Positions 3,775 through 44,992 of a stretch of 47,029 nt of DNA are shown piece after piece. How positions within the stretch are numbered: position 1 is the first letter of the stretch; every line of letters begins with the position of its first letter. The notes under the pieces are model-generated. The model was not told the DNA's origin, did no database searches, and saw only the letters and a list, made by a program, of their open reading frames with translations. The stretch covers positions 1-47,029 of the forward strand of contig CAUTGT010000001.1 in NCBI GenBank assembly GCA_963537735.1. The letters are read 5' to 3'. Source of the DNA: an uncultured Actinomycetaceae bacterium. Lineage in GTDB: Bacteria; Actinomycetota; Actinomycetes; Actinomycetales; Actinomycetaceae. The position numbers and the translations under genes were made by a program.

Positions 3775-5541
3775 ATGATCATCCACCCCGAGCTACTTCC
3801 TAGCAAGCTCTACGCGGCGCAGCCCTGGTGGAAGAACGCCGTGCTGTACCAGGTCTATCCCCGTTCGTTCCAAGATACGAACGGGGATGGGCTCGGAGAC
3901 CTTGAGGGGATTATCCACCGCCTCGACTACCTAGCTGAGCTGGGTGTCGATATCGTGTGGATATCGCCGATCTACCGCTCCCCTCAAGCGGATAACGGCT
4001 ACGACATCTCGGACTACCGCGACATCGATCCCTTATTCGGCAATCTCGAGGCTTTCGATACCCTCGTCGCCCGTGCCCACGACCTGGGTATGCGCATCGT
4101 CATGGACCTCGTTGTCAACCACACGTCGATCGAGCACCCCTGGTTCGTTGAGTCGGCATCGAGCGTCGACTCGGAGCGCCGAGATTGGTACTACTGGCGT
4201 GATCCGCGCCCTGGCTTTGCCCCTGGCGCTCCCGGTGCTGAGCCGACGAACTGGGAGTCGTTTTTCGGCGGGCCGGCGTGGGAGTACGACGCGTCCACGG
4301 GCCAGTACTACCTCCACCTTTTCGCACGCGAGCAGCCCGACTTGAACTGGGAGAATCCGCAGGTTCGTGACGCCGTCTACGACATGATGAACTGGTGGCT
4401 CGACCGCGGGGTCGATGGCTTCCGGGTCGACGCGATCGACGTCATTTCGAAGCTGCCGGGCCTGCCCGATGGCGGGCCGGCGCGCCCTCCGTTCGGGGTC
4501 GGCCACGAGTGTTTCGCCGACGGGCCTCGTCTCCACGAATTCCTGCAGGAGATGCACGAGCGGACGTTCGCCCACCATCCCGGGTCGTTTACGGTCGGCG
4601 AGGCCTCGAACGCGTCACCGGAGACAGCACTGCTGTTTTGCGATCCCGAGCGCCGCGAGTTCAACATGCTCATCCAGTTCGAGCACGTCAATATCGGCCT
4701 CGAAAACGGCAAATTTTCACCCCGCAACTTGGCACCCGGGGAACTGGCGGATGTCCTCACCCGCTGGCAGGACACGCTCGGGACGCGCGGATGGAACGCG
4801 CTGTACCTGGAGAACCACGACCAGCCGCGCTCGGTATCCCGTTTCGGCGATCCTTCGCAGTACTGGTACGAATCGGCGACGGCTCTAGCGACCGCCTATT
4901 TCCTCCAGCGCGGTACCCCCTTCATCTATCAGGGCCAGGAGATCGGTATGCTCGGCGGGGATTTTAAGACCGCAGCCGATCTGCGAGATGTCGAATCCGT
5001 GTCGTACATGAAACGCCTAGGGGTTGACGAGGTGCCCGAGGGGCTCTCCGCGATGTCGAGGGACAACGGGCGGACCCCGATGCAGTGGGACCCCTCCCCC
5101 GCTGCCGGCTTCTCTGAGGCAGTCCCGTGGATTGACGTGCCCGCTTCAGCCGAGCAGATTAACGTCGCAGCGCAGGCGGAAGATCCGCAGTCGATACTGG
5201 CCTACTACCGCGCGCTCATCAGCGCTCGCCACGTCATCCCCGCGCTGACCGATGGAACGTTCACACGGATAGACGCGTCAGCACCCGCGCTCTTCGTCTA
5301 CCGGCGCAGCACCCCGGGTTCGGAGGTCCTCGTGATGGCCAATCTGTCCGGGGAGCACACAACTCCCCTCTTCTCCCCCGAGGACGAGGCCGTGGCTTCG
5401 TTGCCGTGGCGCCTCTACCTGGGCAATATGGACACGTCGTTCGTCGAGACGGATGACGCCGGCGACCGCGTACAGAGCGAACCCACGGTTATCACGCCAA
5501 TGAGGCCGTGGGAAGCACGGGTGTATCTCCTGGCCAACTAG
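3775..5541 (+). CDS. GH13 alpha-glucosidase / oligo-1,6-glucosidase family
   Basis: YQVYPRSFQD, DNGYDISDY, DLVVNH, QPDLNW, GFRVDAI (nucleophile), VGEA (acid/base), ENHDQPR, YQGQEIG, RDNGRTPMQW. Confidence 0.93.
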   Translation: MIIHPELLPSKLYAAQPWWKNAVLYQVYPRSFQDTNGDGLGDLEGIIHRLDYLAELGVDIVWISPIYRSPQADNGYDISDYRDIDPLFGNLEAFDTLVARAHDLGMRIVMDLVVNHTSIEHPWFVESASSVDSERRDWYYWRDPRPGFAPGAPGAEPTNWESFFGGPAWEYDASTGQYYLHLFAREQPDLNWENPQVRDAVYDMMNWWLDRGVDGFRVDAIDVISKLPGLPDGGPARPPFGVGHECFADGPRLHEFLQEMHERTFAHHPGSFTVGEASNASPETALLFCDPERREFNMLIQFEHVNIGLENGKFSPRNLAPGELADVLTRWQDTLGTRGWNALYLENHDQPRSVSRFGDPSQYWYESATALATAYFLQRGTPFIYQGQEIGMLGGDFKTAADLRDVESVSYMKRLGVDEVPEGLSAMSRDNGRTPMQWDPSPAAGFSEAVPWIDVPASAEQINVAAQAEDPQSILAYYRALISARHVIPALTDGTFTRIDASAPALFVYRRSTPGSEVLVMANLSGEHTTPLFSPEDEAVASLPWRLYLGNMDTSFVETDDAGDRVQSEPTVITPMRPWEARVYLLAN

Positions 5542-6158: not shown

Positions 6159-6187
6159 GGCCCACTAGTGGGCCGCTATGGTATGCT
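6159..6187 (+). promoter_or_regulatory. Repressor operator GGCCCACTAGTGGGCC overlapping a promoter (TATGGT, or extended -10 TGnTATGCT)
   Basis: Same operator plus GCTATGGT context as the early lytic promoter at 6639-6668. Confidence 0.65.
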
Positions 6188-6193
6188 GGCCGT

Positions 6194-6301
6194 AGCGTGT
6201 ACATATTGATACCCGGATCGGCTCCGGGGCTTGCCCGCGCGCACGGGCGTCCTAAACGCGCGAGACCCCACCAGGGCGCCTGCCTGGTGGGGTCTGTTTT
6301 T
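6194..6301 (+). ncRNA. Candidate small RNA 2 (hairpin, possible pseudoknot, terminator)
   Basis: Follows the operator-gated promoter; CCCGGA/TCCGGG hairpin; GCCCG/CGGGC stem whose loop complements downstream GCGC; ends in terminator with T tract. Confidence 0.4.
6263..6301. terminator. Intrinsic terminator, probably bidirectional (also directly after the repressor stop)
   Basis: 13-bp stem AGACCCCACCAGG/CCTGGTGGGGTCT followed by GTTTTT. Confidence 0.8.
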
Positions 6302-6569
6302 ATGCCTGGCCTGTTGCGAGCATGTTTTCGGCGTCGGCGAGGATTCGCGTCATCGATACGCCCAGCGCGCGGCACAGCGCTTCAAGGACTGTGACAGTCA
6401 TGGGCGCGGTCTGGCCCTCCTCGGCGAGAACTCGCATCAGTCGCGACCGGGAAACTCCCGACCGGGTTGCAAGTGTTCGCTGCGACATGCTTTGCCTGGC
6501 CATTTCGGCGCGTAGGGCGGCGGCGACGGCCTGCTCGAAGTCGTGGGGCTCAAATGCAGTGACATTCAT
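6300..6569 (-). CDS. Immunity repressor (XRE/CI-like HTH, 89 aa), probably leaderless
   Basis: LRAEMARQSMSQRTLATRSGVSRSRLMRVL HTH; divergent from cro; CATAAT -10 lies 7 nt upstream of ATG 6569. Confidence 0.8.
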   Translation of the reverse strand: MNVTAFEPHDFEQAVAAALRAEMARQSMSQRTLATRSGVSRSRLMRVLAEEGQTAPMTVTVLEALCRALGVSMTRILADAENMLATGQA

Positions 6570-6581
6570 ACCCCACATTAT

Positions 6582-6695
6582 GGACCAGAAACGGGCCACC
6601 TGGTAGGGACATTGTGCCCGTATTTTTCGCATTTCGACTTGACTGGCCCATTTGTGGGCCGCTATGGTTACTCACATGCGGCCCAAAAGTGGGCC
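6582..6695. promoter_or_regulatory. Genetic switch: three GGCCCA-N4-TGGGCC operators (6582-6597 imperfect, 6645-6660, 6680-6695) and rightward promoter TTGACT-N18-TATGGT (6639-6668)
   Basis: Palindromes read directly between the divergent HTH genes. Confidence 0.75.
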
Positions 6696-10261: not shown

Positions 10262-11275
10262 ATGGCATCGACCGAAGTCACTAAGGCGTGCGGCAAGGCC
10301 GCCGCGAAACCCACCACCCCGGCCCCCGCGCCTGTGCAGGCCCCCGGCTTCTCCTACATCACCGCCGGCCTGCAGGAACGCGCCGACTACATTGCCCGCC
10401 TTGCCCCCTCGACGATCCTGCCCACCGCGTACAGGGGCAACGCTGCTAACGCGTTCGTCGCCGCCGAAACCGGCGCAGCCCTCGGCCTCGAACCCCTGCA
10501 GGCGCTCGCGTCTATCGCCGTCATCAACGGGCGCGCGACACTGTCCTCGGACCTCATGGCAGCGGTGATCCGCCGCGCAGGCCACACGCTCAGGATCGTT
10601 GAAAACAGCCCCGAGTCTGTGACCGCGACGCTGATCCGCGCCGACGACAAGACCTTCAAGTTCGAGGTCACCTGGGACAAAGAAAAGGCCGTCAAGGCCG
10701 GCCTATGGGGCCAGCGCGGCCCCTGGTCGCAGTACCCCACGCAGATGCTCAGGGCGCGCGCGATCACCGAGGTCGCCCGTCAAGGCGCGTCCGAAGCCCT
10801 CATGGGGATGATATATGCCCCCGAGGACTTCGGGGCGACCATCACGGACACGGGCGAAGTCATTGAAGCGGAGATCGTCGCCGAGACCCCCGCACCCGCC
10901 CAGCCCACGCAGGCGGCGAAGGCGAAGCCGGCTGCGAAGCCCGCGGCGGCCCCTTCCCAGCCCGCTCCGCTCGACAAGCCCCTCACGCCCGCGCAGGCAA
11001 GCGTCGCAAAGGGACTCGAAACCCTCAGCTTCACCCAGGACGCATACACGGCCTTGTGCAAGCGCTGCCTCGGCCAGATCGTCGCCGTCAACGCCCTGAA
11101 CGACGAACAGGCCGCCACCCTCCACGCCGAGCTGCTCGCAATCTATAACAGCATCCACGCGCAGCCCGCACCCGAACCGGCACCCGAGGCCGAGGCTGAG
11201 GTGGAGATCGTCGACGAGCAGGCCCCAATCTTCGATTACGGGGACGACACCGACCCGAACGGGGGCGCGGCGTGA
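10262..11275 (+). CDS. RecT-like ssDNA-annealing recombinase
   Basis: LPTAYRGNAAN...LGLEPLQALASIAVINGR...AGLWG...WSQYPTQMLRARAITEVAR; acidic tail. Confidence 0.75.
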   Translation: MASTEVTKACGKAAAKPTTPAPAPVQAPGFSYITAGLQERADYIARLAPSTILPTAYRGNAANAFVAAETGAALGLEPLQALASIAVINGRATLSSDLMAAVIRRAGHTLRIVENSPESVTATLIRADDKTFKFEVTWDKEKAVKAGLWGQRGPWSQYPTQMLRARAITEVARQGASEALMGMIYAPEDFGATITDTGEVIEAEIVAETPAPAQPTQAAKAKPAAKPAAAPSQPAPLDKPLTPAQASVAKGLETLSFTQDAYTALCKRCLGQIVAVNALNDEQAATLHAELLAIYNSIHAQPAPEPAPEAEAEVEIVDEQAPIFDYGDDTDPNGGAA

Positions 11276-12534
11276 ACGGCATCGACCTGTACGACGGTAT
11301 CACCCTGCATCAGGGGGATTGCAGGGACATCATGCGCACGTATCCCGACCAGCATTTCGACGCCGTCATCACCGACCCGCCCTACGGGATCAGTTTCAGG
11401 GGCGAGAAGTGGGACACCGCCACACCGACCGGTTTTCAGTCTTGGGCGCAGTCGTGGGGTGAGGAGGCGCTGCGCGTCATCAAGCCCGGCGGCTATCTAC
11501 TCGCTTTCTCAGCGCCGCGCACCTACCACCGGCTCACGAGCGGCCTCGAGGACGCCGGATTCGAGGTCCGCGACACCATGGCATGGATACGCGCCGACGG
11601 CAAGCCGGCTGGGACAGACATCGCCGCATCGATTGACCGCGGCGCGCTGCAGACCCGCGAAACGCTCCTGCGCTTCACATCGTGGCTCCGATCGACCGGG
11701 ATCACAGGCAAGCAGATCAACAAAGCGACCAACTCATTCATGGGGTCGCATTACCTGACGCAAGCCAAGCAACCGGCAATCCCAACACGCGCGCACTGGG
11801 ATTCACTTCTCCCGTTACTCGAGGGAGTTGCGATCCCCGAATGGGTCACCAAGTTAGTCGACGACACGCACACGTCGAACGTGCTCGGCGCCCGCGAAGG
11901 ACGCGAGGTGAGCGCCATCGACACGTCTGGAACGGCAACCGGCATGGCCTCGCGAAACGTGAAAAGCGCAGGCGAACCTATCCGCGACGAGGCGAAGGAA
12001 TGGGCCGGGTGGGGGCTTGGCCTTAAACCGGCCTGGGAGCCGATCGTCGTCGCACGTCGACCTGTAGACGGCGACTCCACGACTGCAAACGTCGTCAAAC
12101 ACGGCGTCGGCGCTCTCAACATCCAGAAGGCAAGCGAGCAGATTGACGGCTTGTATCCGCCGAACCTGCTCATGGGCGAGCAGGCCATGGCCGCCGCTGT
12201 GGAGCAGGGCGCGCCCGACCACGTGTGGCCCGTGTTCCGGTACCAGCCGAAGGCGCCAACGTCCGAGCGCCCGAAGGTGGGGGAGATACAACACGTCACC
12301 GTGAAGCCTCTCGAGCTCATGAGGTACCTGATCCGACTGGTTGTGCGGCCCGGTTCCCTGATCCTCGAACCGTTCGCCGGGTCGGGCACCACCCTGCAGG
12401 CGGCGGCCATGGAGAACACGCGGGCGGTCGGCTGCGAACTCGACGACAGGTACATCCCGCTCATCAAAGCCCGGTTCGCGCAGGGCATCGAAGCGCCCCT
12501 CGACCTGTTCGGCCTGGCCGGTGACGCAGCATGA
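11272..12534 (+). CDS. DNA amino-methyltransferase (N6-A/N4-C, beta-type motif order)
   Basis: Catalytic TDPPY near the N-terminus; HVTVKP; SAM-binding LEPFAGSGTT near the C-terminus. Confidence 0.9.
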   Translation: MNGIDLYDGITLHQGDCRDIMRTYPDQHFDAVITDPPYGISFRGEKWDTATPTGFQSWAQSWGEEALRVIKPGGYLLAFSAPRTYHRLTSGLEDAGFEVRDTMAWIRADGKPAGTDIAASIDRGALQTRETLLRFTSWLRSTGITGKQINKATNSFMGSHYLTQAKQPAIPTRAHWDSLLPLLEGVAIPEWVTKLVDDTHTSNVLGAREGREVSAIDTSGTATGMASRNVKSAGEPIRDEAKEWAGWGLGLKPAWEPIVVARRPVDGDSTTANVVKHGVGALNIQKASEQIDGLYPPNLLMGEQAMAAAVEQGAPDHVWPVFRYQPKAPTSERPKVGEIQHVTVKPLELMRYLIRLVVRPGSLILEPFAGSGTTLQAAAMENTRAVGCELDDRYIPLIKARFAQGIEAPLDLFGLAGDAA

Positions 12535-13646
12535 CGACCATCGGATCGTTGTTCACCGGCTACGGGGGCCTCGACATGGGCGTAGCCATGGCCCTAGACC
12601 CCAACTCGCGGGTCGCGTGGACCAGCGACGTTGAACCCGGCCCCTGCCGGCTCGCCGAGGTCCGCTGGCCCGACACCCCCAACCTCGGCGACATCACAAC
12701 GATCGACTGGGCAGACGTGGAGCCCGTCGACATCATTTGCGGCGGCTCACCCTGCCAGGATCTAAGCCTCGCAGGCAAACGCGCAGGCATGCGCGCTGGC
12801 ACCCGCTCGGGCCTGTGGGAATCCATGGCCGCCGCCGTCGAAACCATCAGACCCCGCCTCGTCGTGTGGGAAAACGTGTTAGGAGCACTCAGTGCCAGAG
12901 CCTATAGCCCGGTGGAATCCGAGCCGGGAATGCTGGGAACGGGAGCAAATGAACCTGCTCTCAGGGCAGCCGGACGTGTGGTCGGAGACCTGGCCGGCCT
13001 CGGGTATGACTGTCGCTGGGCAGTTGTACGAGCTTCCGACGCAGTCGCCCCTCACCAGCGCGCCCGATTCTTCCTTATTGGCTACCCCGACGGCCAACCT
13101 TGGCAGTTGCGGCGGCCCGCAACACCCCGACAAGCGCCGAGCCGGCGGCCACAGCGTGAGCCTGCAAGACCAGGTCTCGGCACTCTAATGCCAACGCCGA
13201 CCGCGTCAGACCACAAAGCCGGGCGCCACCAGGCGGGGACGGGAATGAGCCTGTCCCAGGCGGTGCAACTCCTGCCCACCCCGCAGGCGACGAACGCGAA
13301 GGCCTTCTCGGCCGGCTACGGCGCAAACCTTCACGAGGTGGCAAGAGGGATGAAGCCCGGCATCTTCGGCGTCTATGGGCAAGCGATTGCCAGGTGGGAG
13401 CAGGTGCTCGGACGTGAGGCTCCAGCTCCTACTGTCCCACCGACACGCGAGGGGGGGCGAGCGCGGCTCTCGACTCGGTTCGTCGAATGGATGATGGGCC
13501 TACCAGACGGACACGTCACCGGCCCAGACCTCAACCTCAGCCGAGAACGCCAACTCAGACTGCTCGGCAACGGCGTAGTGCCACAGCAAGCCGCGCTCGC
13601 GGTCGGGACGCTCATCCGAGCGGCGCGGACGGAGGAACGCTCATGA
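12531..13646 (+). CDS. DNA cytosine-5 methyltransferase
   Basis: Motif I SLFTGYGG, IV GSPCQDLS, VI WENV, VIII HQRARFFLIG, IX FVEWMMGLP, X GNGVVP. Confidence 0.9.
   Translation: MTTIGSLFTGYGGLDMGVAMALDPNSRVAWTSDVEPGPCRLAEVRWPDTPNLGDITTIDWADVEPVDIICGGSPCQDLSLAGKRAGMRAGTRSGLWESMAAAVETIRPRLVVWENVLGALSARAYSPVESEPGMLGTGANEPALRAAGRVVGDLAGLGYDCRWAVVRASDAVAPHQRARFFLIGYPDGQPWQLRRPATPRQAPSRRPQREPARPGLGTLMPTPTASDHKAGRHQAGTGMSLSQAVQLLPTPQATNAKAFSAGYGANLHEVARGMKPGIFGVYGQAIARWEQVLGREAPAPTVPPTREGGRARLSTRFVEWMMGLPDGHVTGPDLNLSRERQLRLLGNGVVPQQAALAVGTLIRAARTEERS
12892..13188 (+). CDS. Alternate-frame ORF inside the C5 MTase gene (possible second subunit or remnant)
   Basis: GTG start after AGGAG; ends in an LLATPTA...SLQDQV module similar to the LMPTPTA...SLSQAV modules in the main frame. 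Confidence 0.5.
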   Translation: MPEPIARWNPSRECWEREQMNLLSGQPDVWSETWPASGMTVAGQLYELPTQSPLTSAPDSSLLATPTANLGSCGGPQHPDKRRAGGHSVSLQDQVSAL

Positions 13647-14068
13647 GGGTGCCGATCCGTGTGCAACGCCAGCGGACACGCGGCTGGCGCATGCCCGCGC
13701 ACACCAAGTACGTGGGCAGGGGAAGCCTGTACGGGAACCCCTACCGAGTCGCCCGAACCCGGCGAGAGCTCGACGCTGGCGATCCCATGGTTGTCGCCAC
13801 GCCCGAGGAGGCAGTCGAGCGGTTCCGTGAGTGGATCGCGACAACGAGGGAGGGGCACCACGTAGGGGACTCGGCACGTCGCATCCTCTGGGGTCTTGAC
13901 CTCGCGTGCTGGTGTCCACCGGGCCAGCCATGCCACGCCGACGTGCTCCTCGAGATCGCGAACCCGCGCGGCCTGGCCGAATACGCAAACCCCTACTACC
14001 GGACGTGGGACAGGCCCCCACGCAAGAACCACTTCTCACAGACGAGGAAACAGCATGACGACATTTGA
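13643..14068 (+). CDS. DUF4326-like protein
   Basis: YVGRGSLYGNPY...DLACWCPPGQPCHADVL. Confidence 0.8.
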   Translation: MRVPIRVQRQRTRGWRMPAHTKYVGRGSLYGNPYRVARTRRELDAGDPMVVATPEEAVERFREWIATTREGHHVGDSARRILWGLDLACWCPPGQPCHADVLLEIANPRGLAEYANPYYRTWDRPPRKNHFSQTRKQHDDI

Positions 14069-14363
14069 CCCGCTCGCCGGTCTTGACGGCGTTCGCACGT
14101 ATCAGGAGCGCGTGATGGTGCGCGCGGTACGCCTCACCCCCGCCAACGCGGCTACGGTCGCGAAGATCGCCCGCAAGACCATCACCACCGACAGTGAGGG
14201 CACGATCTTCCTGGTCGGCCCCGGCACCGCCGTGTGGGCCATGGAGGGCGACATGATCGTCGCCACGCCGGGCCGCGTGCGTGTCTCGAACCGTACGGCG
14301 ACGGACTTCCGCGCCTGGTACTCGCACGCAGGCGCACCGATCAGCGAGGAGGACCTCTCATGA
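14055..14363 (+). CDS. Hypothetical phage protein
   Basis: RBS GAGGA; VRAVRLT...EGDMIV...FRAWY pattern. Confidence 0.65.
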   Translation: MTTFDPLAGLDGVRTYQERVMVRAVRLTPANAATVAKIARKTITTDSEGTIFLVGPGTAVWAMEGDMIVATPGRVRVSNRTATDFRAWYSHAGAPISEEDLS

Positions 14364-15217
14364 CCACCGAACTGACCATCGGTGCTATTAACCCCGGCTA
14401 TGGTGGCCTCCCTATCGGTGTGGCAGCCGCCCTGGGCGGTGCAACCCTCCAGTGGCACGCCCACCCAGGCCTAGGCATTGACTGGCCCGGTCGCACTGTT
14501 ATGCACTATCACCACCCACGAGCCGCCGCCTACACCGAAATTAGTACGCATCCACCGATGGTGGACGTGCTCACCATCAACCGGCTTGCGACCTGGCAGA
14601 CCGTGGGCGTGCCGCTGATCGACGCAGGCTACAAGCCCCCGCTCGTCATCGTTGAGGTGCAACTCCCCAACGACGAAGCCGTGCCAGTCTGCGACTATCT
14701 CGCCAGCCACGGATACCGCACGGAATGGCCTTGCCTGTGCTCGAACGCGGTCGGCGCACCCCACCGCCGCCTCCGTACGTACGCAATCGGTGTCCGTAAC
14801 GACATCGACGTGCCCACGGTGAACCCGGCGTACCTGGAAGCCGACCCGTGGACCGGCGACCTATGGGCCAGCCCGAGCGCGTACTGCACCCACCTAGACA
14901 GCGAGGCATACAGATGGGCGCAGGATGACATGGAAGGCCACGCCGACAAAGCCCTCACGCGCGCCCTCGAGCACTGGGAGAAGGTCACGGGCGAACGCTG
15001 CCCATATCCCCTGTACTCGCTGCCCACCACCACCGACGCGGGGCACCTATCTATCGGCTTCGTGGAATGGATGATGGGACTACCCATCGGCTACGTGTCA
15101 ACGCCGAGCCTGCATCTCTCACACGACCAGCGCATGGACCTCCTCTACTCGGGGACCGTGCCCCTGCAGGCCGCGCACGCCGTCGCCGTCGGCCTCAAGC
15201 AGATGGGCGAGCCATGA
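14360..15217 (+). CDS. Degenerate C5-methyltransferase paralog lacking the catalytic Pro-Cys motif
   Basis: Colinear with 12531-13646 (GYGG, GAPHRRLR, FVEWMMGLP, GTVPLQAA), but motif IV is absent and ENV is replaced by EVQ; RBS GAGGAGG. Confidence 0.75.
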   Translation: MTTELTIGAINPGYGGLPIGVAAALGGATLQWHAHPGLGIDWPGRTVMHYHHPRAAAYTEISTHPPMVDVLTINRLATWQTVGVPLIDAGYKPPLVIVEVQLPNDEAVPVCDYLASHGYRTEWPCLCSNAVGAPHRRLRTYAIGVRNDIDVPTVNPAYLEADPWTGDLWASPSAYCTHLDSEAYRWAQDDMEGHADKALTRALEHWEKVTGERCPYPLYSLPTTTDAGHLSIGFVEWMMGLPIGYVSTPSLHLSHDQRMDLLYSGTVPLQAAHAVAVGLKQMGEP

Positions 15218-18914: not shown

Positions 18915-19658
18915 ATGCCCACCCACACGCAGATGCTCGCACAGATCGCAGCCTGGCTACCCGCCCTCGACACAGCGGCCCACACCGCGACCGGCCTGCA
19001 CTCCCCCCGCCCCACCTCGGGCGCACACAGCGGCAACGGCGCAGGTCTCCCCTACCGCCTCGCCGCCATCCTCGACACCACCGACGACGGCCCCGCTGGT
19101 ATCCGCACCAGCGCCGGGGTGCTCGACATCCTCCACCCGTGGGCGGTGCAGCTCGCAGACGAGCGCAGCGAACCCGCCCCCGCGCGCCGCTCCACGCTGC
19201 CCTACCTGATCGGCACCATCACGTGGGCGCAGGACCACGCCGCCGACTGGGAAGCCCTCGCCGAAACCATCACCGACACCTGGCGCATCCTCGCGCGCGC
19301 CACAGGCCACACCCCCGCCACCATCGGCACCTGCCCCAACTGCGGCGGTGCTATCACAACCGACCCCACCCCGACCGGCATCCCCGAACACGGCTCCTGC
19401 GAACGCTGCGACAGGTGGTACCAAGACAAGGAGGACCAAAGCATGGTCCGTAAAACAGCCCTGAACGACGTGCTCAGGAACACGCGCAACCCCGCTATCT
19501 ATGTGGACTGGACGACCCTCTCCCAGGCTTTCCCCACGCTCTCCCACGACCGGCTCCGACAGTGGGCACACCGAGGACACGTGCCAACACAGCCCGGCCC
19601 ACTCTACCAAGTGCGAGCCGTCCACGACCGCCTCGACCGCGAACAAGGCGCAGCATGA
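18915..19658 (+). CDS. Zn-ribbon plus C-terminal HTH protein (possible late transcriptional regulator)
   Basis: CPNC...CERC; RLRQWAHRGHV...LYQV; at the end of the early region. Confidence 0.55.
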   Translation: MPTHTQMLAQIAAWLPALDTAAHTATGLHSPRPTSGAHSGNGAGLPYRLAAILDTTDDGPAGIRTSAGVLDILHPWAVQLADERSEPAPARRSTLPYLIGTITWAQDHAADWEALAETITDTWRILARATGHTPATIGTCPNCGGAITTDPTPTGIPEHGSCERCDRWYQDKEDQSMVRKTALNDVLRNTRNPAIYVDWTTLSQAFPTLSHDRLRQWAHRGHVPTQPGPLYQVRAVHDRLDREQGAA

Positions 19659-19831
19659 AACGCGCCCGCCTTACCCGCATATGCCAGGCCGCCCCGCTTG
19701 TCACTGTCGCCGCCATTACCGCTGCGCATGGGTGCGCCAATATCGCGGGCAGCGACCAGGCGTTCGGTGCGGCTCAAATAGTTACAGCCGCCCTCGTCGT
19801 AGCGCTCACGGCAATCCAGGGAAGGGAGTAG
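19655..19831 (+). CDS. Small hydrophobic protein
   Basis: ATGA overlap; two hydrophobic stretches. Confidence 0.5.
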   Translation: MKRARLTRICQAAPLVTVAAITAAHGCANIAGSDQAFGAAQIVTAALVVALTAIQGRE

Positions 19832-19833
19832 GT

Positions 19834-20208
19834 ATGACCGCCGACGATGATCGCGCGCTGCGCGCCCTCGACCTCGCCACCGCCGGCCTCAGCGTCGCCA
19901 AGATCGCCACCATGCTCGACACCACCGTCAAAGACGTGAAGGCCCTCATCAAAGCAGGCAAGAAGCGCGACCCCCGCGACTACGACCCAGACGTCGAAGC
20001 CCGCCGCCTCGACAAAATGAGCGCCGCCCTATGGCCCCTCGCCTCCCAAGGCGACCCCGAAACCGTCGGCGTCGTCGTCAAGCTCATGGAACGACGCGAC
20101 ACCATGGACGCCACAATCGACGGAGACCTCGCCGCCGCCGTAAAAGCCACCACCAAGCTACAGAAAGCCCACCGCGACCAAGTAGCGACACGCGCAGATA
20201 CCGAGTAG
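19834..20208 (+). CDS. HTH DNA-binding protein
   Basis: RALDLATAGLSVAKIATMLDTTVKDVKALI; RLDKMSAALWPLASQGD. Confidence 0.6.
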   Translation: MTADDDRALRALDLATAGLSVAKIATMLDTTVKDVKALIKAGKKRDPRDYDPDVEARRLDKMSAALWPLASQGDPETVGVVVKLMERRDTMDATIDGDLAAAVKATTKLQKAHRDQVATRADTE

Positions 20209-20282: not shown

Positions 20283-20331
20283 GATACCAAGACCCCCGAC
20301 CTCAGCAACCAGGTCGGGGGTCTTGCGTATC
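20283..20331. terminator. Bidirectional hairpin terminator between convergent units
   Basis: CAAGACCCCCGACCT/AGGTCGGGGGTCTTG 15-bp stem, extended by GATAC/GTATC. Confidence 0.75.
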
Positions 20332-20340
20332 ACCTGCAGG

Positions 20341-20622
20341 TCACAGGCCGTGACGCTCGACCGCCTTCCAGAAGTCAACGGCGGTCACGGTCTGATAGAA
20401 GCCCTGACGGTTTAGGGCGATTGTGCCGGTGCGCGGGTCAAGCGCCTGGTACCAACCGAAGCACTCCTCGATCAGTTCCTCGACATCGACGTCAGCGTCG
20501 GCAGTGAACCCGAGAGCATCCCGGACCATACCCCGCACCTCATCAAGGGTGGTGAAGCGGGTGGGCTCCTCGGTCAGCTCGATAACCTCGGCCAGGTCCT
20601 CGGGGGTGTGGATGGTTTCCAT
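20341..20622 (-). CDS. Small acidic protein in a stand-alone leftward cassette (candidate anti-CRISPR/anti-defence)
   Basis: 93 aa, Asp/Glu-rich; has its own promoter, RBS GAAGGAG and terminator; function inferred only. Confidence 0.75.
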   Translation of the reverse strand: METIHTPEDLAEVIELTEEPTRFTTLDEVRGMVRDALGFTADADVDVEELIEECFGWYQALDPRTGTIALNRQGFYQTVTAVDFWKAVERHGL

Positions 20623-20644
20623 GGGGGTCTCCTTCGTTGAGTTG

Positions 20645-20702
20645 CAGGGGGCTTTTCCCTCCTGACACCATTAACTATAGCCCGCGCACAACGCTAAGTC
20701 AA
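20645..20702 (-). promoter_or_regulatory. Promoter TTGACT-N17-TATAGT with spacer operator and 5'-UTR hairpin (copy 1)
   Basis: Homologous to 43657-43715. Confidence 0.75.
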
Positions 20703-20740
20703 CACGTGGGGACGTGACACCCACCACAAGGACACGGACC

Positions 20741-21088
20741 ATGGCCCGCCGCCGATGCTCACACCCAGGCTGCCCTACCCTCATCCCACACCCTGGCCCC
20801 CGCCTATGCCCTACCCACAACCGCGAGCGCGAACAGCAACGAGGCTACTCAACCGCACGCGGCTACGACCGCCACTACCGGGCCGCCAGGGTACGGGCCG
20901 CCCGCCTCGTCGAGGCAGGCCAGGCCGTGTGCTGGCGGTGCGGCCAACCCATCAAGGCAGACGAAGCGTTCGACCTTGGTCACGATGACGACGATCGTTC
21001 GATCATTCGCGGACCAGAACACAGATTTTGCAATCGCAGCGCCGCAGGCAAAGCGGCACACAAATACGACCGAACCGAAACGGACTGA
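20741..21088 (+). CDS. HNH-type endonuclease associated with packaging
   Basis: CSHPGC...CPTH...RGY...CWRC...DLGH...EHRFCN; immediately upstream of the terminase genes. Confidence 0.75.
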   Translation: MARRRCSHPGCPTLIPHPGPRLCPTHNREREQQRGYSTARGYDRHYRAARVRAARLVEAGQAVCWRCGQPIKADEAFDLGHDDDDRSIIRGPEHRFCNRSAAGKAAHKYDRTETD

Positions 21089-21262
21089 CACGCACACCCC
21101 CCAGGGGGGTGGCCCCGACCGGGGCCCCGTCAGACCGCTGGTGAGGGATGTAAACAGTTCGGAGGGTTCAAAACTTCCCGCCCGAAACCGAAAAAGCCGC
21201 CCGGCGCGACGCCGAGGTGGCCCTGCAGGCAGGCGCGACGCCGGCCAGCGAGGAGACTAGTC

Positions 21263-29334: not shown

Positions 29335-29535
29335 ATGGTCACCGCATACAACACCCGAACCGGTGTTTTCCAGGACATCCCCGAGCACTGGATCGGGCAC
29401 CCGATCTGGGGTGAGGACTGGACGCTCACACCGCCACCCGAGGCCCGCGAACCCCTGTGTTGCGGCCAGGAGGAACCCACCGACGCCCCCGACAGTGGGG
29501 ACGACACCACCGACCACCTCAACGAAGGAGACTAA
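29335..29535 (+). CDS. Small hypothetical protein
   Basis: RBS AAGGAGG; IPEHWIGHPIWG. Confidence 0.55.
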   Translation: MVTAYNTRTGVFQDIPEHWIGHPIWGEDWTLTPPPEAREPLCCGQEEPTDAPDSGDDTTDHLNEGD

Positions 29536-29538
29536 ATC

Positions 29539-30063
29539 ATGGCAGGTGCAAAGACCCTCGCCGATGGCCGTATCGCCCTGTGGGCGCTCACTGCGAAGCC
29601 GTCGAGCATTGCGGCCCCCGCCGTCAGTGAAATCCAGGCCGGCAAGAAGATTTCGTGCCGAATCCTGAAGAACGATTACGCGCTCGGCGCTGAGTCGGAT
29701 ACGGAAATCGCCGAGCAGGAGATGTGTAAGAAGGGTGAGGGCAAAGCCCCCGGCCCTACGACTTACGCCGGCAACATCACCGTGCTTCGTTACCTCGACG
29801 AGGCGGGTAAGCCTGTCGCCGCCGACGACTTCGTCTGGGATCTCATCAAGAAGAAGGGCACCACGATCTGGCTTGTTGAGCGTGAAGGCCCGGACGAGTC
29901 CAAGGAGATCGCCGCCGATGACATCGTCAGCGTGTACGAGGTCGTCCTCGGTACGCCGACCAAGCCGTCCGACCGTTTCGCTGGATACATCAAGCGAACC
30001 GCGAAGCTGAACATCATGGACGCCGCCGAGGACGTCAAGGTCGCCTCTGCGGTTTTGGCCTGA
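29539..30063 (+). CDS. Major tail (tube) protein
   Basis: KTLADGR...AAPAVSEIQAG..ISC; strong RBS; precedes the chaperones and tape measure. Confidence 0.8.
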   Translation: MAGAKTLADGRIALWALTAKPSSIAAPAVSEIQAGKKISCRILKNDYALGAESDTEIAEQEMCKKGEGKAPGPTTYAGNITVLRYLDEAGKPVAADDFVWDLIKKKGTTIWLVEREGPDESKEIAADDIVSVYEVVLGTPTKPSDRFAGYIKRTAKLNIMDAAEDVKVASAVLA

Positions 30064-40527: not shown

Positions 40528-41616
40528 ATGACCGCCACCATCAAGGGCCACGTCAAAGACCCAACCGGCAAGCCCGTCACCGTCACAATCACCGCCACCC
40601 CCAACCCGAACCCGACGCGCACCCCTGACGGCGACCTCATCGTCCCCGGATCTGTCATGAGCGCGGGCGACGACGGCCACGTCACCGCCGAACTCAGTGC
40701 GGGCCGTTACGTCGTGTCCGTCGCGTCCCCGACCGGCCTCCTCGCCGAACGCGACGTGACCCTCACCGACGGGCAGACCATGACGCTCGGTGACCTCCTC
40801 ACCGCCCCCGCGCCCACGCCCGACACCCCAGCGCCCGGCGGCACGCCCCTCGTCGATGAACATGGCAAGCCCCTCACCCTCGCCGACATCAAGATCGTCA
40901 ACACCCGCGCCGAAGCCGAAGCACTCCCCGACGGCACCGTGTACCTCATCACCGAGCAGACGGACGCGCCTGGCCACGACGACCACGGCGAAACCAAGCC
41001 GAACCCCGCGGCTGGCCCGACCCTCGTCGCTCATGCTTCGGGGCAGCATATCGGCGACACAATCACGATCCGCACCGACGGCCAGGCGGGCGATCGCGCG
41101 ATCGTCGCAGTCAACACCAAGGCAGTCAACGGGCAGACCTTCACCTTCCCCACAGGTTTTGCGACCCTCGTTGAGCCTTACTGGATCGGCACGATGCGTT
41201 TCACCGTCGCCGTCGGCCCCTGGGCACCCGAACTCACGGTGCGCACGTCGCAGCCCGTAGAGGCCGGATACGCCGCCGTCACCACGCGCGGCGGCGGTAC
41301 GCCGATCGTCGGCCAGGTCAAAAAGCGCCAAGCCGAACCCGCCGAGACCGGCACCTGCACAGCCCCCGAAGTCCCAGCGACCACGGGCCTGACGATCGGC
41401 TTCGCATTTGAGCGCACGACGGCGCCAGAAACAGCAGACCAGGTCACCATCAACCAGGGCTGGGAGCGCCTCGAGTATGCAGCGCAGGAGGGCAACAACC
41501 TGCAGACCGTGCTCGCGGCGCGTCGCACCGCCCCGGCGGGCGATCTCACTGTCACTTACCCGAATACACAGACGTCGAACGGTGCGGGCGTTCAGGTGGT
41601 GATTCCTAATGCGTGA
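40528..41616 (+). CDS. Putative virion-associated beta-rich protein (fibre/adaptor-like)
   Basis: N-terminal GHVKDPTG Ig-like segment, EALPDGTVYLI linker, beta-rich C-terminal domain. Confidence 0.55.
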   Translation: MTATIKGHVKDPTGKPVTVTITATPNPNPTRTPDGDLIVPGSVMSAGDDGHVTAELSAGRYVVSVASPTGLLAERDVTLTDGQTMTLGDLLTAPAPTPDTPAPGGTPLVDEHGKPLTLADIKIVNTRAEAEALPDGTVYLITEQTDAPGHDDHGETKPNPAAGPTLVAHASGQHIGDTITIRTDGQAGDRAIVAVNTKAVNGQTFTFPTGFATLVEPYWIGTMRFTVAVGPWAPELTVRTSQPVEAGYAAVTTRGGGTPIVGQVKKRQAEPAETGTCTAPEVPATTGLTIGFAFERTTAPETADQVTINQGWERLEYAAQEGNNLQTVLAARRTAPAGDLTVTYPNTQTSNGAGVQVVIPNA

Positions 41617-42490
41617 CGCCGTCGAAAACGTCCCGGTGGGCCGCGTGCTGCGCGTGCGGCGCCGTGACGGCGGAGATGTGACGGGTCGCCTGTACCGCCG
41701 CCGACGCGAAGGCGGCGATATTCCCCTGCGACCCCGCACAGCGACGACACCGGGCGCGGCGCGTGACCTGGTCGCCGAGTTCCTTGCACGCAGGCCCTTC
41801 TACATCAGTCACCGGCTCGGGGGCACCGAGTACCCGGAATTCACGCAGGCGGGCCTCGACGCGTCCCTGCGCGCGGGCTTCAAGGCCCTTGAAATCTCCC
41901 TGCGCAGGTGCGGTTCTGGCGAATACGTCATGATTCATGACTGGACGACGGAGCGCGTCGTGCCCGGCACGAAGCTCCCGATCTGGTCGACGCCGTGGGA
42001 CACGCTGAAAACGCTGCGACAGGGATCGGGGCCGCTTATGAGGTTCACCGACCTACTCGAACAGCTCCCCGATGATGTCATCCTGGCCGTCGACCACAAG
42101 GTGACATCCTCGAAGCAGGACGCGAACTCATCGGACCTGCAGTCTGAGCTGGACCTGTACACGCTGCTCGACGACGCTTTCGACGGCCACCCCGAACGGC
42201 GGGTGCTGTGGAAGCACTTTGTCAACGCGGGGTCCGTGGACCGCGCCAAGGCACGCGGATATAGGAGCATGTGTATGCTCTACCCGAACGAGCTCGCCAC
42301 CGCCGACCTGTCCCGCTGGGACGTTCTGGGCATGGAGTGGAACGCGCCCGCCGCCGCCTGGCAACAGCTCACGGCGACCGGGAAACCCACCATCGCGCAC
42401 ATCATCACGAACACGGGGCAGGCGCAAACCGCGCTCGGGAAGGGCGCGGGCGGCCTCATGGCCTCCTGGCCGACCACCGTCCACCCGTAA
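41609..42490 (+). CDS. Glycerophosphodiester phosphodiesterase (GDPD) family protein
   Basis: SHRLGG...PEFT...ALEISL...MIHDWTTER: both catalytic His residues present, variant metal motif. Confidence 0.75.
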   Translation: MRDAVENVPVGRVLRVRRRDGGDVTGRLYRRRREGGDIPLRPRTATTPGAARDLVAEFLARRPFYISHRLGGTEYPEFTQAGLDASLRAGFKALEISLRRCGSGEYVMIHDWTTERVVPGTKLPIWSTPWDTLKTLRQGSGPLMRFTDLLEQLPDDVILAVDHKVTSSKQDANSSDLQSELDLYTLLDDAFDGHPERRVLWKHFVNAGSVDRAKARGYRSMCMLYPNELATADLSRWDVLGMEWNAPAAAWQQLTATGKPTIAHIITNTGQAQTALGKGAGGLMASWPTTVHP

Positions 42491-42505
42491 GCCCCCGCGC
42501 TCGCG

Positions 42506-42546
42506 CAAAGCCCCCACCGACCCGTTTCTGGGCGGTGGGGGCTTTG
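42506..42546. terminator. Bidirectional terminator ending the late operon and the leftward accessory operon
   Basis: CAAAGCCCCCACCG/CGGTGGGGGCTTTG. Confidence 0.8.
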
Positions 42547-42592
42547 TCGTGTTTCAGGCGGGGAACATATCGGTTTTTCCGAATAGTTCTTC

Positions 42593-42808
42593 CTATTTGC
42601 GTAGGTCTGTGCGTGCGCCCTGGCCGGGCCGCGAGGCCAGCCACGCGTCGATTGTCTCAGGTGACCAGCCGCGCAGGGGGCCGTTCGGCGTGCTGATCTG
42701 TACGTCAGCGGGTGGGGTCAGTCCCTTGCGCATGTATGACCTAATCGTCGCCGGGGCCAGGCCGGCGCGGGCGGCGAAGTCAGCGGCGCCCAGGTACTCG
42801 CGTGTCAT
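42593..42808 (-). CDS. AlpA/MerR-like HTH protein (71 aa)
   Basis: YLGAADFAARAGLAPATIRSY...GWSPETIDAWLASRPGQGARTDL; TAATG-coupled to the upstream gene. Confidence 0.75.
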   Translation of the reverse strand: MTREYLGAADFAARAGLAPATIRSYMRKGLTPPADVQISTPNGPLRGWSPETIDAWLASRPGQGARTDLRK

Positions 42809-43227
42809 TATGCCTCCCTGGTGGTTCGGGTGGTGATTTCGACGGGGATGTCCTGGTCGGAAAGGAAAGCGAAGGCCCTCCCGACACACGCCTGATACGT
42901 GGACAGTGGCAGGCGCGAGGCCCACTCGCAGCCCTGTTCGTACGCGGCTTGATCGACGTACGAGATGAGCGCGGTCGGAATGACGCGCACGTCCTCGATC
43001 TCGTCGTCAGCGGGGGCCGTCAGCTCGTCGACGCAGTCGAGGGCAGCGTCCTCAAGGTTGCCGAGCAGCATGTGAACACTGATCGGGTCTCGCGGTGTGC
43101 CCTTGCCGATCTCCCACGAGCGGATCGCGCTTTCGGGAGCATCGATGAGGTCGCCGAGTTCGGCGCGTGTGAGCCCGAGGGCTTTGCGTCGACATCGAAG
43201 GCCGGCGGGGGTGATCGGTTCGGTCAA
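42808..43227 (-). CDS. XRE HTH regulator with an Aca2/DUF1870-like C-terminal domain
   Basis: ITPAGLRCRRKALGLTRAELG...IRSWEIG..P, then LISYVDQAAY...YQACVGR; TTG start after AGGAGG. Confidence 0.7.
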   Translation of the reverse strand: MTEPITPAGLRCRRKALGLTRAELGDLIDAPESAIRSWEIGKGTPRDPISVHMLLGNLEDAALDCVDELTAPADDEIEDVRVIPTALISYVDQAAYEQGCEWASRLPLSTYQACVGRAFAFLSDQDIPVEITTRTTREA

Positions 43228-43288: not shown

Positions 43289-43633
43289 TCAGAGTTCAAC
43301 GCCGCGGCGCTTGCAGTAGGTGACGAGGCCTCCGGGCTTGTTGTCGGTGATCCACTGCGCGGCCAGGCCACAGATGTAAGCGCGGCTCGGGCAGTCCTTC
43401 ACTGTCTCATCGATGACACGGTTCTTGTTCGCATCCTTCAGGATGATGCGGTACCCCTCGCCCTTCGTGAACTGGACGCTCACGGTGCCGATGAGGAAAC
43501 AGCCTCGCTTCATCCTGTTGAATCGCTCGGCCCACAGCATCGCGGAGTAGTGACCATTCAGGCGTCCGCGCTCGTCGCTGATCTGAACGTTGTCGGCGTT
43601 CCAGGTGGTGCGGAAAACGGTCGTGGTGGTCAT
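43289..43633 (-). CDS. Small basic hypothetical protein, first gene of the accessory operon (candidate anti-CRISPR/anti-defence)
   Basis: 114 aa from ATG 43633 after GAAGGAG; function inferred only. Confidence 0.7.
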   Translation of the reverse strand: MTTTTVFRTTWNADNVQISDERGRLNGHYSAMLWAERFNRMKRGCFLIGTVSVQFTKGEGYRIILKDANKNRVIDETVKDCPSRAYICGLAAQWITDNKPGGLVTYCKRRGVEL

Positions 43634-43656
43634 TTCGGTGTCTCCTTCGTTGAGGT

Positions 43657-43715
43657 TCGGGGGGCTTGTCCCTCCCGATGACTCAACTATAGCTCGCGCA
43701 CGGGCTACTACGCAA
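43657..43715 (-). promoter_or_regulatory. Promoter TTGCGT-N18-TATAGT with spacer inverted repeat and 5'-UTR hairpin (copy 2)
   Basis: Inverted repeat TAGCTCG-CGCA-CGGGCTA at 43690-43707; homologous to 20645-20702. Confidence 0.75.
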
Positions 43716-43736: not shown

Positions 43737-44900
43737 TCATATGCCGAGTTGTGGGGTCGATCCCCCCATGGCCACACTCATGGCTTCGGCGGCGCCCGCG
43801 TACGCATCGGGCGCGAGGTGACCATATACGTCAACGGTCGTCTGAATGGATTCGTGGCCCATGCGACGCTGAACCACGGGCAGGGGGACGCCGGCGGCGA
43901 TCAGCGCCGACGCGTGCGAGTGCCTGAGATCGTGCACGCGCGGACGCGGCGACAGACCCGCCGCATCACACGCGGGCCGCCAAATGTGATTATGGAACGG
44001 CGCCGACGTGATCGGCCCGCCCCTGCGCGCCGTGAATACCAGCTCGTCCGCCGCCTTACCCGCGAGCGCGGCGCGCAGCTCAGGGATCACGGGTGCGGGG
44101 ATGGTGACTGTTCGTCGGGAGCGCTTGGTTTTCGGGGCCCCTAGGTAGCGGGTGCCGTTTTCGCCGGCCTTCCAGGCCTTGTTGATACGGGCGACGGGTT
44201 GTGCGACGTCGAGGTCGATGTCGGCGACCGTGAGGGCGGTTGCCTCTCCGAAGCGCAGGCCGAGGCCGTACATGGTGGTGACGAAGGGCTGGTAATCGGT
44301 GGGGATCTGTGCGTGGAGGCGGGCGAACTCGTCGGGTGTTAGGAAGCGCATTTCGCGGGTGGTCGCGTCTTTGGGGAGGGGGACGGCCTTCGCGGCGTTG
44401 CGGGGGATCACGTCCTCGTTGACGAGGCGTTGCAGTGCGGCGGACAGAAGGGCCTGCGCGTTACGGATGGTCTTTGCCGACGGTGGTCGCCCGGCGGTGG
44501 CCCCTCGCGTGACGGGCGTGCGGCGCAGTTCGGCGATCCACTTCGTGACCGTGTGCCGGGTGAGCATGTCGACGGGGATTAGGCCGAGGTGCGGTTCGAT
44601 ACGGTCTCGTACGATCTGCCTGTAGCGGCTGATTGTGCCCGGCGTTGCGGATGCGGCTAGGGCTTCGAGGTGGTGTTCGAGGGCCGCGGCGACGGTGGGC
44701 GTGTCTGTGGCTGCGAGGTCGTCGAGGCTGCGCAGCTCGCGGGCGGCTGCCCCGCCGATGCGGTCGACGAGGTCGGCGAAGCGCTGGGCGCTCGCGGCGT
44801 CGTAGAAGGTTTCAACGACGGGGTTGCGGCCACCGGCGCGGTAGCGGACGCGGTATACGACGGTGCCGTCACGGTGTGTCACTGCCTTGACAGATGCCAT
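43737..44900 (-). CDS. int: Tyrosine integrase (387 aa)
   Basis: GLRFGE (R), PKT (K), HDLRH, MGH, DVYGH (Y); start MASVK at 44900. Confidence 0.93.
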   Translation of the reverse strand: MASVKAVTHRDGTVVYRVRYRAGGRNPVVETFYDAASAQRFADLVDRIGGAAARELRSLDDLAATDTPTVAAALEHHLEALAASATPGTISRYRQIVRDRIEPHLGLIPVDMLTRHTVTKWIAELRRTPVTRGATAGRPPSAKTIRNAQALLSAALQRLVNEDVIPRNAAKAVPLPKDATTREMRFLTPDEFARLHAQIPTDYQPFVTTMYGLGLRFGEATALTVADIDLDVAQPVARINKAWKAGENGTRYLGAPKTKRSRRTVTIPAPVIPELRAALAGKAADELVFTARRGGPITSAPFHNHIWRPACDAAGLSPRPRVHDLRHSHASALIAAGVPLPVVQRRMGHESIQTTVDVYGHLAPDAYAGAAEAMSVAMGGSTPQLGI

Positions 44901-44968
44901 CTTTGCGCCGCCTTGCTTGATCTTGAGCGTGTTTGCTTGATCTTGATTGTACTCCGATAACTTAGCGT

Positions 44969-44992
44969 GCGTGTCACGCAAGCGTGTCACGC
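44969..44992. promoter_or_regulatory. Putative integrase arm-type sites (two GCGTGTCACGC)
   Basis: Direct repeats separated by AA; same unit as 5847-5864. Confidence 0.65.

Follow-up and report, generated by a model that had tools for sequence, protein, structure and literature searches.

Operons of the anti-CRISPR (acr) and anti-CRISPR-associated (aca) type acr-aca1 have, according to the relevant sections of Feussner et al. (NAR 2026, PMC13551039), an inverted repeat in the promoter DNA, a transcription start about 10 nt downstream, and right after this start a bulged RNA hairpin of about 20 nt that ends about 20 nt before the start codon; the same sections report that most Aca families are predicted to control neighbouring operons that have no regulator of their own. 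An arrangement of similar anatomy is described here from contig CAUTGT010000001.1 (GenBank assembly GCA_963537735.1) of an uncultured Actinomycetaceae bacterium, which was analysed over its entire length of 47,029 nt (the window). The window holds a temperate siphovirus prophage. Just before its HNH endonuclease and terminase genes lies gp93, a single minus-strand gene, and 23 kb away, beside the integrase gene, lies a leftward operon (the distal operon) with a variable first gene, gp114, followed by the genes of a helix-turn-helix (HTH) protein, HTH139, and a small excisionase (Xis)-like protein, Xis71. Judged from the sequence, gp93 appears to be one of two accessory cassettes (three in relatives) driven by a common, lineage-specific expression module, which would consist of a sigmaA-type promoter (-10 TATAGT), an 8-bp bulged stem-loop, a short unstructured spacer and a strong Shine-Dalgarno sequence. 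The module apparently carries interchangeable small ORFans, most of them very acidic, and the copy on the integrase side would also drive the HTH and Xis-like genes. An acr-aca-like circuit with an anti-defence role is the best single explanation of this arrangement; the argument for it is one of architecture, and it is put forward tentatively.

The likeness to the acr-aca operons, as the cited sections describe them, is one of anatomy: a strong promoter that has an inverted repeat in the distal copies, a bulged hairpin of about 20 nt right after the predicted start and some 20 nt ahead of the start codon, small variable genes followed by a conserved HTH gene, and a motif that is repeated before operons without a regulator. 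The host, however, is actinobacterial, and a term search of PMC13551039 found neither Actinomyces nor Actinobacteria named there. The locus differs further in that HTH139 showed no significant similarity to any Aca and no cargo was recognisable as a known Acr, in that the gp93 copy lies 23 kb away in the prophage (about 16 kb on the virion map) and misses half of the DNA repeat, and in the Xis-like gene within the distal operon.

Lambdoid phages carry morons such as bor and lom. The gp93 cassette resembles these in being a single gene with its own promoter and terminator that runs against the neighbouring phage operons, but differs in being conserved in its lineage, in having a typical composition (G+C content at third codon positions 0.79, like neighbouring genes) and in sharing its promoter-leader with other cassettes. 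With the anti-restriction genes that enter the cell first, such as T7 gene 0.3 (Ocr) and the T5 pre-early genes, it has in common a small, very acidic product, a place near the probable first-entering end and a promoter for host RNA polymerase; unlike them it belongs to a temperate cos-type siphovirus, no structural likeness of its protein to Ocr or any other DNA mimic was found, and the polarity of entry is a deduction. Cluster N mycobacteriophages are said (work of Dedrick and colleagues in 2017) to carry prophage-mediated defence genes in a central variable region. There too the stretch of a temperate actinophage from the lysis module to the integrase/immunity region holds hypervariable genes, but those genes are larger, often enzymatic or membrane-related and expressed in the lysogen, whereas the cargoes here are small, acidic ORFans that share a leader and are accompanied by an HTH gene. 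Literature searches returned no such module and no counter-defence gene for Actinomyces-group phages, and to our knowledge no counter-defence (or defence) genes have been described for phages of oral Actinomyces-group bacteria.

The promoter and leader of gp93 and their second copy

An earlier note on this DNA had described gp93 as a single acidic gene with a promoter and terminator of its own, and it proved right on these points. The protein has an isoelectric point (pI) of 4.2, with 20 acidic (D+E) against 7 basic (K+R) residues, the cassette is monocistronic and holds no regulator gene, and on neither strand of the window does any site other than its promoter reach 10 of 12 matches to the sigma-70-type consensus. 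The hairpin beyond the end of the gene reaches -46.1 kcal/mol in the minus sense (z -6.6) and -43.7 kcal/mol in the plus sense (z -7.2), with none of 200 shuffled sequences as stable, and is likely a bidirectional terminator without a U-run. With promoter and terminator of its own, the cassette stands apart from the flanking operons, as is typical of morons.

The region upstream of gp93 does recur, as the same note had it, before the distal operon (43637-43701, ~65 nt; 82% identity over 66 nt, E 2.2e-11), and the proteins encoded behind the two leaders are unrelated (BLASTP E 0.33). No third match to the two leader regions was found in the 1.6-Mb assembly. The 17-mer AACTATAGCYCGCGCAC occurs exactly twice in the window, at 20673 and 43685 (0.16 expected; two or more occurrences in 0/100 shuffles), and the 14-nt TCTCCTTCGTTGAG occurs exactly at 20628, 43641 and 29518(-), with four matches at up to two mismatches against 0.24 expected. 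Both motifs named as shared are therefore present at both sites, but TCTCCTTCGTTGAG is not specific to the cassettes, being found also in the ribosome-binding region of the tail-tube gene (29539), and most likely represents a strong translation start site. At window 29518-29541 the tail-tube gene has the CTCAACGAAGGAGAC ribosome-binding context of both leaders.

Transcripts are predicted to start about 7 nt downstream of the -10 box, and the stem-loop begins 2-5 nt later. A bulged 8-bp stem-loop at this place, as in acr-aca operons, is predicted in all 34 copies counted; over these copies 96% of the cells are paired, and at one pair the two sides have changed together (G-C in 26 copies, A-U in 8, no mismatches). 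This covariation is modest and possibly reflects a single event spread by conversion. The loop measures 4-6 nt while the stems are constant, and this variable length speaks for a hairpin of RNA (or single-stranded nucleic acid) over a DNA site spaced by a protein. The folding energies are mildly unusual (z -0.3 to -2.4). The promoter-leader as a whole is a real, selected element; it is 92-95% identical across relatives while synonymous divergence (dS) in gp93 amounts to 0.17-0.47.

Between the gp93 promoter and the HNH start (20703-20741) there is a conserved inverted repeat, GTGGGGACGTGACACCCAC (plus strand), the arms of which vary among relatives, with a compensated arm in relative L007. It may be a regulatory site of the late operon or an element of the HNH 5' untranslated region; no plus-strand late-operon promoter was recognised.

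Copies of the module in related phages

A pattern scan of IMG/VR yielded 30 stretches on 20 contigs, and a scan of metagenomes with a 15-nt promoter pattern matched 117 stretches; of 80 loci fetched, four carry the hairpin and the rest are chance matches. Together with these four metagenome loci and one same-genus genome, the IMG/VR stretches give 45 distinct copies. Four IMG/VR contigs encode a gp93 homologue, and each of the four has three copies of the leader, one before the gp93 homologue and two about 1.15 kb apart near the integrase gene, so that the two-site system first proposed becomes a three-site system in relatives. Every TATAGT in the window and in four relative genomes falls within the module. 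Its pattern was found in only one of 300 other genomes of the host family and is therefore not a host promoter type; the module is specific to this phage lineage. DNA searches with both leader regions against 50,697 phage records found nothing, and Rfam had no family at or near threshold.

A leader before ordinary structural or replication genes of relatives would have counted against the earlier note, but each copy examined stands before a small ORFan and never before a gene of those classes, the sole exception being the bare Shine-Dalgarno part at the tail-tube gene. The cargoes comprise gp93, gp113, gp114, gp121, gp130, three acidic types of 132-138 aa, and a 96-aa acidic open reading frame (ORF) in a distant element. 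Among nine typed cargoes, six have a pI of 4.0-4.5, gp93 4.2, gp121 5.6 and gp114 9.5. Six copies precede gp93 homologues; all have the TTGACT-17-TATAGT promoter and the CAGG..CCUG hairpin allele. The distant element, in IMG/VR contigs L036 and L057 (~1470-1530), shares the -10 and has a hairpin of similar form, but lacks AAGGAG; its leader-like motif precedes the 96-aa acidic ORFan and adjoins HNH-like and HTH genes.

Unrelated cargoes share not only the leader but also their first codons (MTTT.., M[STN]TVTY..). The gp93-type hairpin allele also turns up in two of the distal copies, those of L035 and L050, so that the alleles are exchangeable between gp93-type and distal copies. A gp93 paralogue with 43% identity occupies a distal slot behind a distal-type leader in L049 and L050, and taken together these two observations mean that the cassettes draw on one pool of genes and leaders.

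The gp93 protein

The earlier note took gp93 for an orphan insertion, and this has to be corrected: it is a conserved gene of the lineage, with 81 homologues of 66-94 aa and 55-96% identity (one with the source name 'uncultured Actinomyces sp.'), and the order early operon, gp93, leader, HNH is kept in 6/6 loci that cover the HNH-proximal position. The ratio of nonsynonymous to synonymous rates (dN/dS) is 0.22-0.68. Sporadic presence and atypical composition, as expected of a moron, are thus not seen in gp93; it is the distal cargoes that occur sporadically.

When 1.8 billion representatives were searched with a profile, 25 gp93-like proteins came up at E <= 0.001, all of them small and none with a Pfam domain. 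Pfam, PHROGs, PADLOC and NCBIfam had no match to gp93, a sequence search of the PDB and the ESM Atlas gave none for it or for gp114, and tblastn of gp93 against the 50,697 phage records also found nothing; a scan of genome contigs with gp93 gave no confirmed relative. A first AlphaFold2 (AF2) model built from close homologues only was poor (predicted local distance difference test, pLDDT, 60.2) and was replaced by one from a wider alignment, a confident alpha/beta model (pLDDT 89.8, predicted template modelling score, pTM, 0.78). Solved structures offered no convincing match to the latter (best Foldseek PDB E 1.6; best VIA Z 3.9 over 58 residues), which does not prove a new fold. Its small size and strong acidity fit a DNA mimic of the Ocr or ArdA kind; no DNA mimic, Ocr included, is among the structural matches listed for the model.

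The distal operon and its regulator genes

The distal operon combines a variable small gene with a conserved HTH gene, as acr-aca operons do. In relatives the first slot, just downstream of the integrase gene, holds gp113, gp114 (homologues in L032, L035 and L119), gp121, an acidic 138-aa type or, in L140, a remnant, and thus at least four unrelated cargo families. After this position an HTH gene (136-139 aa) and then a 71-aa MerR/Xis-like gene follow in 22/23 contigs, and the HTH protein that had been expected in this operon is in fact a conserved one. A toxin-antitoxin pairing of cargo and HTH was considered and dropped: there is one conserved HTH with several unrelated first genes, and none in L140.

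HTH139 matches Pfam HTH_3 at 5.9e-4, which is below the cut-off, and a profile of 20 sequences matches the P22 C2 repressor at E 0.002; similarity to Aca3 is weak (profile E 0.056, single-sequence E 0.22). Mean column identity is 89%. Residues 19-45 come in two sharply distinct helix alleles (LTRAELGDLIDAPESA vs MSRGDLAALLDVNEGV, GKGAP vs GKTWP) in an otherwise nearly invariant protein, which suggests specificity exchange or diversifying selection in the part that would read DNA. Xis71 matches phrog_597 (2.3e-20), phrog_66 (excisionase and transcriptional regulator, 9e-7) and PADLOC mad1 (1.1e-6), and in the window its start codon ATG and the stop codon of HTH139 overlap (TAATG). In many relatives the Xis-like gene is followed by a third copy of the module, a slot that the window lacks; its cargo is an acidic ORFan (132-138 aa), gp130 or the gp93 paralogue of L049 and L050, sometimes followed by a ROS/MucR-like protein of 230 aa.

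In the distal copies the promoter spacer and -10 box form the right arm of an inverted repeat of 20-24 bp, e.g. CTATAGCCCGCGCGCGGGCTATAG. Over 38 distal copies 88.5% of the cells of this palindrome are paired, and at 4/12 pairs both sides have changed (G-C to C-G, C-G to A-U), for which reason its symmetry appears to be under selection. It may be an operator for a dimeric regulator, located where the inverted repeat of acr-aca operons sits, but may equally be an RNA hairpin in read-through transcripts of the integrase and Xis71 genes, i.e. a terminator that lacks a U-run, as do those hairpins of this phage that are clearly terminators.

Control of the module by the CI-like repressor was another candidate and was rejected. 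The CI-type operator GGCCCA-N4-TGGGCC occurs only at 6159, 6645 and 6680 and is lacking at the leaders, so that the module is not under direct CI control through this operator. Each of its copies is followed by GCTATGGT (with a -10-like TATGGT), and two flank the CI/early divergent region. The copy at 6159 faces a structured non-coding stretch of ~110 nt that ends in a strong U-run hairpin (6263-6300); the stretch may encode a small RNA that CI controls, or be no more than the region of the CI terminator. Inspection by eye only showed no LexA/SOS box.

The genome end and the prophage

The two ends of G001, a 98%-complete relative contig, overlap by 39 nt at a position corresponding to window 21097-21135, between HNH and terS, and the gene order of Arthrobacter phage Isolde (terL 52% identical, at 638-2222) ends with HNH. 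Because of this agreement, the cos site very probably lies between HNH and terS. The stretch 21097-21135 is GC-rich and palindromic (CCCCCCAGGGGGGTGGCCCCGACCGGGGCC..) and a candidate for the site itself. The gp93 cassette does then lie near a genome end, as had been surmised, about 0.4-0.8 kb from the probable right end. In lambda-like packaging the end that is packaged last enters the cell first, and by this analogy the gp93-side end would probably be the first to enter.

The window is the entire contig of a fragmentary assembly (1.61 Mb, 306 contigs, 68% complete, 66% G+C). By terL the closest isolated phages are Arthrobacter phages (~52% identity). The prophage is flanked by host genes (Table 1), but no attachment-site repeat (no exact match of at least 11 nt between the two borders) and, in the search for an attachment site, no tRNA was found. 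In the early operon an N6/N4 methyltransferase, a C5 methyltransferase, a DUF4326 protein and a second, weak C5-methylase-like ORF stand in tandem (11272-15217), a run that suggests heavy investment in DNA modification, probably against restriction. The gene of the GDPD-family phosphodiesterase is kept in relatives.

Table 1. Positions of the features discussed, in window coordinates
Feature	Position	Strand or direction	Remarks
gp93 ORF	20341-20622	minus	93 aa, acidic; conserved ORFan family
gp93 promoter (predicted)	20702-20674	minus	TTGACT-17-TATAGT; 10/12 consensus positions
gp93 leader	20623-20668	minus	Shine-Dalgarno, unstructured CAACUCAAC spacer, bulged stem-loop
gp93 Shine-Dalgarno	20635-20628	minus	GAAGGAGA, 5 nt before ATG
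gp93 stem-loop (predicted)	20664-20645	minus	CAGGAGGG-AAAAG-CCCCCUG; few nt from predicted mRNA start
GC-rich hairpin	20283-20330	both	between early-operon end and gp93 end; likely terminator
Distal operon	43633-42593	leftward	beside integrase gene
Distal promoter (predicted)	43686-43715	minus	-10 TATAGT 43691-43686, weak -35 TTGCGT 43715-43710, 18-nt spacer
Imperfect palindrome	43687-43711		overlaps distal promoter
Distal leader	43634-43680	minus	GAAGGAGA at 43648-43641, 7 nt before ATG at 43633
Distal stem-loop (predicted)	43678-43657	minus	UCGGGAGGG-ACAAG-CCCCCCGA; -14.8 kcal/mol, z -2.3
gp114	43289-43633	minus	variable first gene; ORFan, pI 9.5, no family match
HTH139	42808-43227	minus	conserved Xre/Cro-C1-type HTH, acidic C-terminal domain; candidate autoregulator
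Xis71	42593-42808	minus	71-aa MerR/excisionase-like winged-helix protein
Hairpin between Xis71 and convergent GDPD gene	42505-42560		121-nt fold -60.6 kcal/mol, z -5.6; likely distal-operon terminator
GDPD-family phosphodiesterase	41609-42490		phrog_17803, E 5e-101; after lysis genes, convergent with distal operon
Tyrosine integrase	43737-44990	minus	Pfam Phage_integrase 1.3e-23; stop ~20 nt upstream of distal promoter
CI-like HTH	6300-6632	minus	probable start 6569
Early operon	~6.7-20.2 kb	rightward	RecT-like gene, three DNA methyltransferases, single-stranded DNA-binding protein (SSB)
End of early operon	19501-20208	plus	followed by large hairpin, then gp93 (minus)
HNH endonuclease	20742-21088	plus	divergent from gp93; phrog_1808 at 8.5e-14
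terS	start 21263
Late genes		rightward	HNH, terS, terL, portal, capsid, tail genes, tape measure, CHAP lysin, GDPD phosphodiesterase
Alpha-amylase	3775-5541		host gene; left flank of prophage
LPXTG surface protein	45137-47026	minus	host gene; right flank of prophage

A possible circuit and its alternatives

If the acr-aca-like circuit is taken as a guide, the module promoters would fire at once when the DNA enters the cell, with gp93 at most about 0.8 kb from the probable first-entering end, after which the small cargo proteins would engage targets in the host, defence systems being the most likely ones. The HTH protein would build up and damp its own operon via the inverted repeat of the promoter, the 5' hairpin or both, and the other copies of the module as far as those sites are common to them. 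What the sequences show is the anatomy and repetition of the module, its conservation, the variable cargo and the conserved HTH gene; the timing of expression, repression by the HTH, action at the RNA level and the anti-defence role are what we infer here. CRISPR pressure on such a phage is plausible, because Cas1 is encoded in 36/48 other genomes of the host genus. In the assembly of the window itself Cas1 was not found, which means little at 68% completeness, and a simple repeat scan of the same assembly saw no CRISPR array, a result of little weight (five candidates were coding tandem repeats).

Several observations weigh against such a circuit. HTH139 is not recognisable as a member of any Aca family, and searches of Pfam, PHROGs, PADLOC and NCBIfam linked none of the cargoes to a known family, whether of anti-defence, defence or any other kind. 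The gp93 model resembles, in BFVD, only uncharacterised phage proteins (best match a protein of Propionibacterium phage G4, E 1.9e-3, template modelling score 0.68 on the query). Relative L035 has gp114 but no HTH gene within 1.1 kb. The gp93 gene is conserved and not sporadic; it is oriented like the CI and integrase genes and comes with a promoter and terminator of its own, which gives it the classic look of a lysogen-expressed moron, and some actinophages keep prophage-expressed defence genes where the distal slots lie. In L035 a ~325-aa ORFan (1865-2842) follows gp114 in place of the HTH/Xis-like pair.

The palindrome adds further difficulties. Its left arm is missing in 6/6 gp93-type copies; these have no co-directional gene upstream, a combination that favours the RNA-terminator reading. 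Its cells that are not Watson-Crick pairs comprise 88 G.U in the sense and 13 in the antisense orientation and 38 others, where base composition alone would give sense and antisense G.U at roughly 7 to 3, and such a bias would suit an RNA hairpin no less than an operator. Many relatives have, within one genome, two distal copies with different inner arms (GCCCG vs CATCG), which would be awkward for a single sequence-specific dimer, and the palindrome variants are not matched by the two alleles (APESA and VNEGV) of the region with which the HTH would recognise DNA. This ambiguity between operator and RNA is the main weakness of the proposal that an HTH acts in trans on the gp93 promoter via DNA. 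That an HTH of the distal operon controls gp93 in trans, as the earlier note proposed, seems plausible, but is the least supported step of the circuit.

Rather unlikely, but the most probable of the alternatives, is the explanation that the cassettes are prophage-expressed morons, for example for superinfection exclusion, for defence against other phages or for host fitness. The module would then be a strong, constitutive and CI-independent unit, stabilised by its 5' hairpin and without a regulator dedicated to it, and the HTH and Xis-like genes would serve excision or lysogeny control. The absence of CI operators from the module agrees with this, as do the promoter and terminator of each cassette, its orientation, like that of CI and integrase, against the flanking lytic operons, the position of the distal slots between lysis module and integrase, the excisionase-like Xis71 next to the integrase, and a palindrome that may be an RNA terminator and not an operator. 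The cargoes, however, are small, soluble and very acidic and have no enzymatic or membrane domain, and PADLOC finds nothing among them; gp93 adjoins the probable first-entering genome end, and if Xis71 is a true excision factor, a promoter active in the lysogen would be awkward.

An extended form of the acr-aca-like circuit, which must be called unlikely, would make HTH139 and its relatives a new Aca-like HTH family in control of a dispersed three-site regulon, mainly via the shared 5' RNA hairpin and less via DNA, while the leader would double as a recombination site by which unrelated inhibitor genes are swapped between slots and between phages. One of the sites would then be the first gene to enter the cell, and the whole would form a small cassette-exchange system for counter-defence genes.

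It is improbable that gp93 is instead a factor internal to the phage and unconnected with host defence, acting for instance in late transcription, in packaging with HNH and terminase, or as a modulator of lysis and lysogeny, with a generic strong promoter as all that it shares with the distal operon. Synteny in 6/6 loci (early operon, gp93, HNH), the dN/dS values and a fold shared with uncharacterised actinophage proteins would suit such a role, but a gp93 paralogue has moved into a variable distal slot, the protein has no DNA-binding or enzymatic signature, and the gene is divergent from HNH and not co-transcribed with it. Least probable is that the likeness of the leaders is mainly a trace of recombination, a conserved linker for cassette swap or conversion without common regulation beyond the promoter: non-homologous cargoes do share leader and first codons, the gp93-type hairpin allele does appear in two distal copies and a gp93 paralogue in a distal slot, but the leader is more conserved than synonymous sites, the hairpin keeps its pairing through a double change and its stems while the loop varies, and such recombination can coexist with regulation instead of replacing it.

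Implications

If the acr-aca-like circuit is true, the leader would serve as a handle with which phages of oral Actinomyces-group bacteria can be searched for counter-defence (or defence) genes, and at least nine unrelated ORFan families already stand behind it. The idea that one Aca governs several operons, with DNA and RNA motifs, would then also hold for a phylum and an HTH family that are new to it, and for an operon far away at the genome end. Should the cassettes be morons, the leader would instead catalogue accessory genes expressed by the prophage. Either way, the module would be a compact and portable unit of promoter, 5' hairpin and ribosome-binding site for high-GC hosts.

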